Below are positions 50,497 through 56,400 of a stretch of DNA of 63,262 bases, piece by piece. Positions within the stretch are counted from its first letter, which is position 1, and each line of letters starts with the position of its first letter. A program made the translations under genes and the position numbers. The notes under the pieces were generated by a model. It saw only the letters and a program-made list of their open reading frames with translations, was not told where the DNA came from and did not search any database. The stretch spans positions 62,001 to 125,262 of the forward strand of contig NW_026940969.1 in the NCBI RefSeq assembly GCF_032062105.1. The letters are read 5' to 3'. Origin of the DNA: Saccostrea cucullata. Lineage: Eukaryota.

Positions 50497-53400
50497 TATA
50501 TCTTATATTGCTCTTTGAGCATGGATAGCTAAACTGTTCAAGTTATCCCTGTTTTAGAAATTTGTTAGTCTGAATTGCTCCAATCACGGTTTTTTTTTTT
50601 TCATTAGGTAAAGACAAAGCAGCTGAGAGATACCTCCGAATTCTACAAGACAGCGAGGAAGTCATTTTCAATGTAAGTAAATGCTAACTATATGCTAGTA
50701 TAATATTCCAGAAGCATCCTGCTTTAGCATTACGTACTTGTCTTCATGTTTTGTGTTTGTCGTTCAGCTTAAAAAAGATTCTCAATTACTTTTTGCAAAA
50801 TGTTTTCAGTTTGATTTCTTTTTATTACAGATAAAACGATTTCAAAGGCAACTGATCAAAACCAAAGATTTCTTAGCTAAGAACAACAATGATCCCGCCA
50901 TGACACGGAAGTTAGACCAAACGTTCTACTTCAGAAAATCAGGATTGTTTGAGAGAATGGGGACACGTATAAGGAAACTCTTTGGTCAGCGTGATCCTGA
51001 TGACTTTTTTATGGCCAAGTTTCAGGATGTTAACTGAAATCAGGAGTTTTCTGTGTTACAGCAGCCTTGGGACATCTGAATGACTGCAGCTAAAACTCTG
51101 TTAGTGGAGGTTCAAGCCACAGCACTGATTGATGCATAAACTACAAGTCCATTACTTTAGATGTGACTATCTTCTTCATCATCAACATCAGAATCACTTT
51201 TTCATCACTTTTGTAGTTAATCTTTGATAGTGGCGTTTTAGTCACATTTTTCATCACTTTTTGTAGTTAATTAGTTATTATTTGATAGTGGCGTTTTAGT
51301 CAAATTTTTTATCACTTTTGCAGTTAACTATTTATTATTTGATAGTGGCGTTTTAGTCACATTTGTCATCACTTTTGTAGTTAACTAGTTATTATTTGAT
51401 AGTGGCGTTTTAGTCACATTTGTCATCACTTTTGTAGTTAACTAGTTATTATTTGATAGTGGCGTTTTAGTCACATTTGTCATCACTTTTGTTGTTAACT
51501 ATAGTTATTATTTGATAGTGGCGTTTTAGTCACATTTCTGCATCAAGATCATCTTTTCATTCACTTGTCATTTTCTACAGATCTTTTCTCTCATTCTGAT
51601 AAAAATGATTTTCATTATTATTAAAGTGTCATTTTCTTATTATTTTGATAATTTATGGAATAAATTTATTATTTACATTTTCAAATGCGTTATGTTTACT
51701 TGCATTATATCAAATCAGCTACGTGTTAAAAATTAATGTTTCATTTTTTATAAGATTTCACTCTGGAGTAGATCGTTCTGCGTTTGCTCTGTGTGTTCTT
51801 AAAAAGATAATGTGTATTAATATAGAACATATAATGTAGTGTGTGAAAAAATGTGTATATCTTTCATCTGTGCGCAGTGGTAGTCAACATGTGAAGATGG
51901 CAATCTGCGGTTGACAGTGGCAGTTGTATGAATTGTATGTACACAGTGCTAAAATGTTAATTCTCATCTGTAAACATCTCAAAGTGCATGGATTCAATTA
52001 AGGAATGTTTTTAAGTTTTGTGTGAGTTATTGGTGTGTGAATCACATAGTCCGAAAAATCTGACGTTTTCCTGGCTTTTTTACGATTTTGATATTTTACA
52101 TGCCAGGAAAACGTCAGAACCGGTGTAACGTTGAATATTGACCCGAGTTGAAAATTGAACCGGGGGTCATTTTTCAACGTTGAATATTGAACCAGAGGTG
52201 TTTTTTCTCCGTTGAAAATTGAGACCAAAAGTCGTTGAATTTATACCCGGGGTTATTTTTCAACAGCTTTATAATTTTTTTTCTTATCTCTGCTGACATC
52301 AACAAGTTGAAAATTGACCCTGTTGAATATTGACCCCAACCCAGAGTTTGAACATTATCTGAGCTTGTTTTACGGGATTTATCAGTATCTCTATACTTAT
52401 ATTTCAGTTTCAATTTTTTCCCTTTTCAAGAGTAGTAGAAATAAACCTATCATCCCGTGTATATATGTAAGACTCCAAGGTCCGATGGTGACGCCAAAGT
52501 CCGATGGTCTCGCCAAACCCCGATGGTCTGCGCCAAACCCGATGGTTTGTTGTCGGTACGGACGCCAAAGTCCGATGGCTCGTTTCTAAAGAGATACGCT
52601 GCGCTAAAGTGCGATGGTCTGACACGCCAAAGTCCGATGGTGTGGAGAAACAATCGACGTTTATGACGTCACAATAATTCGACGTCAATCCTTGACGCCG
52701 TTTTCCTGCATTCACATTATCATCATGAACATGGTGTGGCTTTCTAGTTTGGCGCATTAGTACTATGACGTCATAAACTTTAATTGTTTCTCCGCACCAT
52801 CGGACCATCGGACTTTGGCGTGTCAGACCATCGAGGATTGGCACAGACCATCGGACTTTGGCGTGACCATCGGACTTTTGAGTCCCATCGAACTTTCTAA
52901 AATCTATCGCATCCATAAAAAAATATAAAACTATGAATAGGGCATAAAACAAAAAGTCCTGGAAATCTGGTGTGAAAATAAAGACATCAATCAGCCAAAA
53001 TTGTCCAAGAAATTTATTAGGGCATTACACTCTAAACCAAACTTCTAAACGAGGCATTCCTTTCTGTTAGAAATATAAATATTCATTAGCTTTCAGCTCA
53101 GGTGAGCTAAAAAGCGTAAACTGTTCCAACCCAGTTTATACCGTATAAAATGAGTAGCTATTAAATTCATTGCTTATAATATAATTTTCATTCATTTGAT
53201 GTAAGAAAATAAGATGATTGTTCCAACAAAATGACTTTAATTTGTACAAAATTTGAATGTAATGTCAGGCGGATTGATACGTTTTTGACGCAAGTCATTG
53301 GGACGTATGCAACCCATTTTATACGAAATTTTTTATCCAATCAAATACAGCGTTACAACCAGAATTAAATTATAGTAACTTAACGTTAAAAATGAAAGTG

Positions 53401-56400
53401 AATTTAAGAGCGGTGCCGAATTTGAAAGTTTATGTTTATTTCAAAGGCTTTTCTTGTTTCAGTATAATAAACAATTCATTGCAGGATAGTGAGAAAAATA
53501 TGAAGATTTATTCAGCCAAGAAATATCATATTCGGATTCCCCTCGGGCGAAGCCCTCAAGGAATATGATTTGTCTTGGCTGAATAAGTCTTCATATGAAG
53601 CCCCCGGGGAATATGATTTTTTCCTGGCTGAATAAGTCTTCATATTTTCCTCACTATTATGCAATAAATGTATGTAATAACTGAATTAAGTGTGTATTGA
53701 TTATATTGGTATCGGGAGAAAATTGAAAGTGCAGGGGGAGGGGTTGACAAAGAGAAAAATCAAATTTTAAAAATAATTGACAAAAAAAAGAAAATAAAAT
53801 TTGTCCATTGTCAAAACTAGTAGTCCAAACCCGAAATCCTTTTTTAGGGTTGAGGGGGGTGTTAAACAATGCCTATATTAAATTTAATTATGTCTATCTT
53901 TGAAAAAAAAAATAGGGGGGGGGGGGGTGCTAAGCATCCCTATCCCCCCTCCCGACGCATATGGATTAAATTACAGTTGTGAAAACCAAGTCATAAATAT
54001 GTTTTTATGCTGTTGAATTTAGAGCCGGTTTTACGATCAATATTCCACGACCCGGCTCAGTTTTCAACGGACTAGGGTCTAAACTCAACATCTTAGGTCT
54101 CAGTATTCAACGTTGAAAAATGAGCCCTGGGTCCATTTTCAACCCAGGTCAAAATTCAACGTTACACCGGCGCCATTACGTAAACTGGGAAATCGCCGCC
54201 TCCAGCCAGAGGCTGCATTGATGAGTTGATTTTAGATATATATACTTGCGAACTGAATTAAATTTCAAAGTCAAAAGTTATCAATAGTACAATACTTAAA
54301 GAACTTACCAATGTAGTTTTTATGGTTCATTAATGAAATAAATAATCCTTTGAAAAAGGTTTTATCACACTGTCGAGATTTGTCTTCATTTCGTGCATTT
54401 TAAAATCTTGCATGTCCTGTTACGAAATGTGGAGTGATATTTTCTTTTCATCGATATTAGTGAGTACTATAGGCATTGTGCTTTTGATAAATTATGATTT
54501 CGGCATTTAGCTCGGTTCACAAGTTTCGAAAATCAACTCCAGTTGAAGACGGCGAAATTTCCAGTTTTCGTAACATTGACGCCGGTTTTGACGTTTTCCT
54601 GGCATGTAAAATATCAAAATCGTAAAAAAGCCAGGATTTTTCGGACTATGAATCACACAGACTTGTCACGTAGGCATATTTCATGAAGCGCGCTAGCGCT
54701 TCATGAAAAATATGCCTACATGCAAGTTTGTGTGATTCAACCAATAAGTCACACTAAACTTAAAAACATTCCTTAGAATTACATTTTCCATGTCTTCAAA
54801 CATCATTAAAAATATACTCAATATCACAGGTACTTGTGGACAGTACCCCCCCCCCCATCCGATATTCAACCCCGGGGCTTATTTGACATTTTTTTCAAAA
54901 TTTATATTTAGTACACATATTCAACATGTTTGCAATATGAACACATCGTCAAAACCAAAAAAATACCCCACTATACATTATAATCTCTCTTATAATGTAT
55001 AGTGGGGGTATTTTTTGAGGAGCGATTATTTTGTGGTTTTGACGATCTGTTCCTAGGCTATTGCAAACATGTTGAATAAGTGTACTAAATATAAATTGTG
55101 AAAAAAATGTCAAATAAGCCCTGGGGTTGAATATCGGGGGGGGGGGGGTCCTGTCCACAAGTACCTGTGCTCAATATTTGAATTTCTTGCTGCCCTATAT
55201 TGTTGCATTTTTCTAACCTCTCTGTATAGCCTCATTGTGACGTCACGTTAGTGCACGTTTCTCCGTGTACATATGTCTACGCATGAGTATACACGAAAAT
55301 GGTATTCAAATCAATTCCACGGTTGCCTTACTACAAATGTAAATATTTTTGTTTGTCAATTTTCGAAGAACAAAGAATTCGAAAGGAGAAGGGTAATGGA
55401 TTGGTTTAGGTATTATATTAAATACACACGTAAATGTATATCACCCGTAGAACTTTGCGCGTTGTCGAAGTCAAAATAAATATCCGAGAATTTATAGATA
55501 TTGAGGTTTGAAATATTTACATAAAGAACAAGATGTGTTTGTGAAACACTGAGGCCTCCGTATGGCAGCTTATTACGGGGGTTGCAATTCAAGTTTCTCA
55601 AAAGCCCTGGGACTAATCGTTCAAAAGTTATGGTCAAGGTTATAGTTTCTTAAAGACGGTCAAACTCTAATATGAAAATCAACACGTTAAAATATTTTTT
55701 ATGTATACCCATTGAAAAGCCTTGTCAGAGCCATCTGCATGTCCAGAAATCGATTCGATGACATGTAGTATGTACAAAATATGATCAGGGACCTGTGTAT
55801 ATATTAACTGAAATATAGGTCCCTGATATGATGTAAAATTCAAAAAGACAGAAAAAAATGCATGACTGGAAAATCCTCATCATGAAATATTGGAATTAAA
55901 ACTTTCAAACAGGTTCATGCAGTTGTCAAATCTGAAATCAGGTTTTTAAAAATTATATTAAGATGCTATGCATGGGCGTCGGAAGCAAATCGAAGAGGGG
56001 GGGGGGGGGGGCTAATTGAAAGTGGTGGGCTAAACCAACAAAAATTGATAAACCCCATTTTTTCAATGCCTATATAATGTAAATATTTGCAAAAAAGTAG
56101 GGGGTGTAATTTTATGTTTCGTAAGTATATATTAATACAATCCTTTCTTGGGAGAGAACATTTTCGTTATCTTGGGGAAAAAATACAATAAATGTACAAT
56201 GTCATGTAGATTTTTTTTTTTTTTGAAAATTCAAATACTAATTTCTTTCAATCTATGCTATTTTCAACTGTGAAACAAATATTTTTTGTGTGTTTAGTGT
56301 ATTTCTGCGCCTGGACAATCTATACATTAGCCTGGGAAAAGTACATTAATGAACATCCCGACCATCCAGTCCATTGCATTATGTACGAAGATCTTCAACA

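Follow-up and report, generated by a model that had tools for sequence, protein, structure and literature searches.

We describe a nest of DNA transposons in the oyster Saccostrea cucullata, at about positions 51998 to 55345 of a 63,262-nucleotide stretch (assembly GCF_032062105.1, contig NW_026940969.1, positions 62,001 to 125,262, forward strand), which is the window referred to throughout. At the centre of this nest, almost certainly, is a single insertion of a Ginger1-type transposon, B (52124-54166), into a miniature inverted-repeat transposable element (MITE) with TAG...CTA ends, A, all within an otherwise ordinary nest of DNA transposons. A preliminary description of this DNA, whose letters we keep, had instead proposed an integron-like array, in which B and a second element, C (54171-54581), had integrated serially at the central CCGG of an empty palindrome, possibly through a tyrosine recombinase of the Crypton type. 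The locus is an ordinary multi-layer nest, and the coordinates and motifs of that description were right while its interpretation was not. Four layers are present, consisting of an outer repeat, A, B and the repeats inside B. Element boundaries, duplications, dispersed families, and the integrase and OTU exons of long copies bearing B's ends were all read directly from the DNA of the source genome, which is AT-rich, 1.17 Gb in size and assembled in 23,869 contigs.

Element B resembles Ginger1 in its ends, its targets and its long relatives

B, first recognized as an element with terminal inverted repeats (TIRs), begins TGTAA and ends TTACA, so that both ends read TGTAA, and 59 of its 67 terminal bases are complementary, giving a TIR of about 67 bp. 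Genome-wide, 467 of 679 exact B ends (69%) adjoin CCGG. Whole copies were examined for 25 insertions drawn from the first 100 listed ends, and 19 of them lie between exact 4-bp target-site duplications (TSDs), comprising 16 of CCGG and one each of CCTG, CCAC and GGGG, and their flanks are unrelated. These non-CCGG duplications and unrelated flanks indicate that CCGG derives from the target and is not part of B's TIR. Of two outcomes that the preliminary description had conceded against itself, unrelated flanks are thus found once flanks are tabulated, and a CCGG belonging to the TIR with a different TSD is not. A purine stands just outside CCGG in 43 of 52 B flanks and in 45 of 104 background flanks (P 2.6e-6), and the extended target of B is RCCGGY. 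The ACGT half-site that had been suggested for the junctions does not hold as a rule, being present in 3 of the 52 B flanks versus 1 of 104 in the background.

The window copy of B yielded no coding match and no detectable transposase remnant. Long copies with B's ends occur at L082 with L112 (about 9.6 kb) and at L085 (9.2 kb). Their exons match the Pfam families Integrase_H2C2 (E 1e-9) and rve (E 1e-7; 32.4 bits, just below the 32.6 cut-off), and L082, as well as L085 in part, has the D-35-E spacing and a GPY motif, along with a YPYY motif judged by eye. An OTU domain is encoded in L082 (E 8e-14), and GT/AG was found at all four exon edges read. A Gypsy polyprotein matches these loci in its integrase part only; no reverse transcriptase family was detected in the open reading frames (ORFs) scanned, 12 of 12 in L082 and 25 of 31 in L085, and no tyrosine recombinase Pfam family in 37 ORFs scanned from the two long copies. 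The broken, transposase-bearing copy formed by L082 and L112 (G000:C13167, approximately 181,100-190,700) is itself inserted at the CCGG of another copy of A. Elsewhere, an ORF of 989 amino acids of Gypsy type (reverse transcriptase, RNase H and integrase; L084:1485-4451) is nested in a B copy and was read as a nested retroelement.

Ginger1, in the sections of PMC2836005 that define it, has TGTNR ends, TIRs of 40-270 bp and a 4-bp TSD that is CCGG in 75% of cases in hydra, and encodes, in genes with introns, a Gypsy-like integrase (YPYY, H2C2, DDE and GPY/F) with a C-terminal OTU or Ulp1 domain. B agrees with those sections in its TGTNR ends, TIR length and mostly-CCGG 4-bp TSD (69% versus 75%), and its long relatives agree in the H2C2/DDE/GPY integrase, the C-terminal OTU domain and the introns. 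Non-autonomous copies sharing the same ends are likewise a feature of both. B differs from Ginger1 as described there in that the copy in the window lacks autonomy and hosts further repeats, in the purine beside CCGG, and in that CCGT/ACGG targets, the second class in hydra (24%), are rarer. By its sequence, then, B is best assigned as a non-autonomous Ginger1-type DNA transposon of known kind, the family of which may already have a name. The fallback offered in the preliminary description, a strictly CCGG-specific transposase, was therefore the right one, and it corresponds to this described group.

Element C reads as the native interior of MITE A

As originally reported, the TAG...CTA element lies between perfect copies of a 9-bp duplication, TGAATCACA (52038-52046 and 54649-54657), and CCGG occurs at 52120, 54167 and 54582. 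The left arm of A (52047-52123) starts with TAG, folds into a 17-bp stem that stops 2 bases before CCGG (z -5.1), and ends with the CCGG of 52120-52123, the entry site of B. B is followed by the second CCGG (54167-54170) and by C, and the right arm (54582-54648), which carries a short deletion in the window copy, begins with CCGG and ends with CTA at 54648. Since B is a Ginger1 insertion and C the interior of A, the CCGGs at 52120 and 54167 represent B's duplication of a single left-arm CCGG, and that at 54582 is its mirror image in the right arm.

This assignment of C was drawn from other copies of A. A query comprising C, 11 bases to its left and 20 bases of the right arm, with the left arm outside it, returned 794 candidates, of which 40 were scored and the best 29 other than the window were examined. 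Both arms of A directly flank C in 27 of the 29, and in the remaining 2 the left arm is separated from C by a Ginger-type element. C as an independent TIR element or cassette was rejected, as it remains with the arms of A in all 29. The arms of A around B in the window are inverted. In another A copy, L056, the inverted repeat passes through CCGG, with 92 of 96 terminal bases complementary; a few changes at the right end of C mask this continuation in the window copy. C, judged by these comparisons, is the native interior of A and includes the inner part of its inverted repeat, so that the full unit of two arms plus C measures about 555 bp. Both ends could be located in 24 of 30 A loci; a 9-bp duplication with no more than one mismatch is present in 18 of these, exactly so in 14, and the intact arm-CCGG-CGC junction has 326 exact occurrences genome-wide.

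The empty palindrome of about 140 bp centred on CCGG, which the array reading predicts, has no match in the genome at up to two mismatches. Short forms of A consisting of arms only do exist, and 29 of them, drawn from the first 100 entries in a list of 383 A ends, were read. They measure 84-169 bp (26 with both ends recognised), their break points vary, and none of the 29 keeps a central CCGG. Most of these derivatives (L120-L131 and L210-L224) still lie between 9-bp duplications. They are likely deletion products of the hairpin, arising by collapse either in vivo or in assembly.

The affiliation of A is less firm. Its TAG...CTA ends fit the termini of Academ elements, for which DUF6589 serves as a marker; no autonomous partner of A was found among the fetched A-end loci or, for 30 of the 107 DUF6589 matches, in the surrounding 1.5 kb, and passages of PMC10799480 shed no light on the ends of A. 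A 9-bp TSD is common to A and AcademH, for which PMC10045372, in the part that treats TSDs, gives 9 or 10 bp, and A differs in that neither a transposase nor a helicase was found with its ends. AcademH is thus a lead, and a MuDR or hAT origin is also possible.

Order of insertion

The outer hairpin, correctly noted earlier as a host, is a dispersed repeat. Its left part in the window (51998-52037) starts with TTAAGG, and its other copies run uninterrupted through one TGAATCACA, which is single in 19 of 19 other loci viewed; the left part is complete in 18 of these. These empty forms indicate that A entered the outer repeat and duplicated 9 bp. The right part and tail (54658 to approximately 55345, interrupted at 54825-55169) continue beyond the end first assigned to the repeat. 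The repeat is asymmetric, with a hairpin of about 170 bp and a tail of about 200 bp, and has 1832 first-look candidates genome-wide.

From the duplications we infer the order outer repeat, A, B and inner repeats. The MITE, with its arms and C, would have inserted into the outer repeat, generating the 9-bp duplications; B would then have entered the CCGG of the left arm, and the second CCGG between which B now lies would have arisen from a 4-bp staggered cut. The Ginger1 DDE transposase was likely supplied in trans by another copy, and the smaller repeats within B were probably placed last.

Repeated Ginger insertions at the CCGG of A

The junction arm-CCGG-TGT occurs 11 times in the genome, representing 9 Ginger insertions and 2 variants of C. 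Together with loci met in other searches, 14 copies of A carry a Ginger insertion, and 12 insertions are independent after two duplicated pairs are merged. Classified by their ends, these belong to five families (7 B, 2 D, and 1 each of E, F and G), and one D locus showed a single junction only. The insertions are found in both orientations and in both arms, between differing 9-bp duplications, and each CCGG holds one insert; no copy of A with two elements, and hence no array in another cassette order, is present among the 14. In a tree of 47 A interiors with 11 hit rows (L075, L078 and L080 were left out), the hit copies are scattered, with 10 changes for 11 rows compared with a shuffled mean of 10.1, and 8 of the changes are forced by well-supported branches. 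A and B therefore do not always move as a fixed composite, a third outcome that had been conceded against the array.

Among 335 exact arms, 4 contain B, and 0.3-2.1 are expected from a flank model and copy number (P 0.0003-0.16), the background flanks being taken from 437 kb of fetched DNA rather than the whole genome. The repeated hits at the CCGG of A are owed chiefly to its presence in many copies as RCCGGY, a flank context favoured by B. This preference explains much of the insertion at the site, and a residual excess is possible. Single sites in other repeat families were also hit by B more than once (L007, L011, L016 and L168; L088 and L172; L003 and L154).

Pairs of Ginger elements sharing one CCGG

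Reuse of CCGG by an insertion that regenerates its target, as the preliminary description had envisaged, does not account for the window locus but does occur elsewhere in the genome, in the form of pairs. Of the 467 CCGG-flanked B ends, 3 adjoin another Ginger end, 2 of them independent. The 1510 ends of families D and E include 31 with CCGG-TGT next to them, at 25 places, all of which were read. Two recognisable Ginger ends are joined at 15 of these places (21 matches), leaving 9 independent pairs once duplicates are merged, and the other 10 compare with 10.1 expected from chance flanks. True Ginger-Ginger pairs are roughly expected at 2-8 places, so that the excess ranges from none to sevenfold. 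Most of the pairs bring together members of different Ginger1-type families at a single shared CCGG. At L207/L208 (G000:C19070, approximately 535,700-541,000), a 1.6-kb B and a 3.7-kb D stand in tandem with one CCGG at each of the three junctions, which is the pattern first proposed for the window, at another locus. Two D ends, at L307 and L308 (G000:C22196 and C11375), adjoin across CCGG the same unclassified repeat starting with TGTAA, which may be a further Ginger family and would then raise the pair count. Three Ginger ends with the same flank and a 928-bp spacing at L310:7832-9688 represent a local tandem duplication of an end. No triple array turned up in 16 stretches measuring at most 10 kb, in which the outer ends were often unrecognised or outside the stretch.

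By the logic of TSD formation, any transposase whose target is a fixed palindrome leaves behind sites that can be used again, and the pairs therefore need no special machinery. Neither Ginger1 pairs nor a MITE hot spot was found in the Ginger1 literature, surveyed mostly at the level of listings, or in passages of PMC12863088 and PMC6839031, and the account of Ginger1 in the passages of PMC2836005 has no side-by-side pairs. In the relevant part of PMC6911290, plant long terminal repeat (LTR) retrotransposons are described as nesting non-randomly, with Gypsy-type insertions weakly preferring palindromes. Tandem MITE arrays in coral are ascribed to slippage within one family in the passages of PMC2872659 that deal with them, which also state that TSD-specific elements can be tandem. 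Both arrangements are tandem, the coral arrays being of the same family whereas the pairs described here are mostly of mixed families.

Alternative explanations

Three other accounts of the locus were weighed. The integron-like array would explain the single CCGG at each of three junctions; it gains from the existence of the short arm-only forms and from the several different elements that occupy the same site in other copies of A, and Cryptons too end in direct repeats of 4 or 6 bp, according to the part of PMC3212892 that describes them, so that the 4-bp direct repeat at both ends of B is formally alike, CCGG having the same appearance on either reading. Cryptons as described there nevertheless lack TIRs and encode a tyrosine recombinase, whereas A and B both have TIRs and the long relatives of B encode a DDE integrase, with no recombinase match in the ORFs scanned. 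The short forms, with their varied break points and missing central CCGG, are not the empty site required, C stays with the arms of A in all 29 copies examined, and none of the 14 hit loci holds two elements at one CCGG. Serial integration of cassettes at this locus, with its single insert, its C that is host interior and its missing empty site, is barely credible. It is scarcely more probable that A and B moved as a fixed composite and that the B-holding copies of A descend from one insertion. Two pairs of hit loci are indeed nearly identical (L074/L075, 99%; L091/L180, 95%), but these also share their flanks and are thus duplicated contigs or segments, and the remaining loci are unlike one another in the family inserted, its orientation, the arm entered and the 9-bp duplication, with interiors 76-95% identical and dispersed over the tree.

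A different question is whether Ginger1 transposases are steered, beyond their sequence preference, to a CCGG beside a hairpin or a Ginger end, in which case A would be a true hot spot and the pairs the seeds of arrays. The 12 independent insertions by five families, the stem ending 2 bases before the CCGG of A, and the 21 of 1510 D and E ends that adjoin another Ginger end across one CCGG all speak for such steering, and with the lowest expectations the insertions of B in A have P 0.004 and the pairs P below 0.001. With 500-800 copies of B and a three-position flank model, however, the count of B is not significant (P 0.045-0.16, or 0.15-0.35 without the window), the 9 independent pairs are as expected if there are 8000 Ginger-flanking sites (P 0.41), recurrent hits at a single site are known from other repeats too, no triple was seen in the 16 stretches, and the background is the fetched DNA and not the genome. 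We regard steering as unlikely, though the least improbable of the three. Somewhat more doubtful again is the wider proposal that Ginger1 transposases are drawn to CCGG beside transposon ends, with several families accumulating at the hairpin-flanked CCGG of one MITE and beside the CCGG regenerated by one another, and that DDE enzymes could in this way build ordered tandem arrays of mixed families as a safe-harbour strategy.

Several points weigh against the reading of the locus as a Ginger1 insertion within A, or against sequence preference as its complete explanation. The window copy of B is linked to a transposase through the ends and the subterminal sequence that it shares with coding copies (84-90% identity), the two such copies found have broken or interrupted exons, and the Ginger1 assignment was made from ends, TSD and domains rather than from a tree with named Ginger1 proteins. 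CCGT/ACGG targets account for 2 of 72 B flanks, and the superfamily of A is a candidate only. The count of B at the site of A is at or above crude expectation, so that sequence preference is perhaps not the whole story, and the Ginger-Ginger pairs (15 places, 9 independent, with 2-8 expected) likewise stand at or above theirs.

The locus itself is an annotation result, in which a Ginger1 family, the MITE that hosts it and a nest of four layers are described, and has little wider import. The RCCGGY target, a MITE site with 12 insertions from five families and the natural mixed pairs should be of modest use to transposon specialists, and these by-products form a data set on whether integrase-type DNA transposons choose their targets by sequence alone. 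Were steering to transposon ends true, it would constitute a safe-harbour mechanism among relatives of the Gypsy integrases.

Repeats inside B and the surroundings of the nest

The further insertions in B, and with them the four-layer nesting, are borne out by several repeats. None of 32 other B loci contains a match to segment 52484-52884 or to segment 53344-53644. The repeat at 52466-52884, which starts TGTAA after TATA, belongs to a dispersed family with 931 candidates; it is internally deleted, and its right end is missing together with about 60 bp of B. Among other copies of this family, 11 of 14 start with TGTAA and 9 of 14 end with CTACA and then TATA or a sequence close to it, and their flanks are AT-rich. 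Ginger2, as characterized in the pertinent part of PMC2836005, has TGTNR ends and an AT-rich RTATAY target. The family resembles Ginger2/TDD of that account in its TGTAA/TGTAG ends and AT-rich TATA target, and differs in that it is known here from non-coding copies, the window copy being without its right end. These sequence features fit a Ginger2-like non-autonomous repeat. B also contains pieces of other dispersed repeats (53088-53340, limits approximate) and a hairpin repeat (53458-53685, limits approximate) whose ends recur at another locus.

The tail of the outer repeat is interrupted by a separate, putatively hAT-like TIR element (54825-55169) with nested inverted repeats and an 8-bp duplication, CTCAATAT. 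Two exon-like pieces flanking the nest have no Pfam match, and upstream of it lie tandem repeats with units of 57 bp (51202-51543) and about 166 bp (50000-50404).

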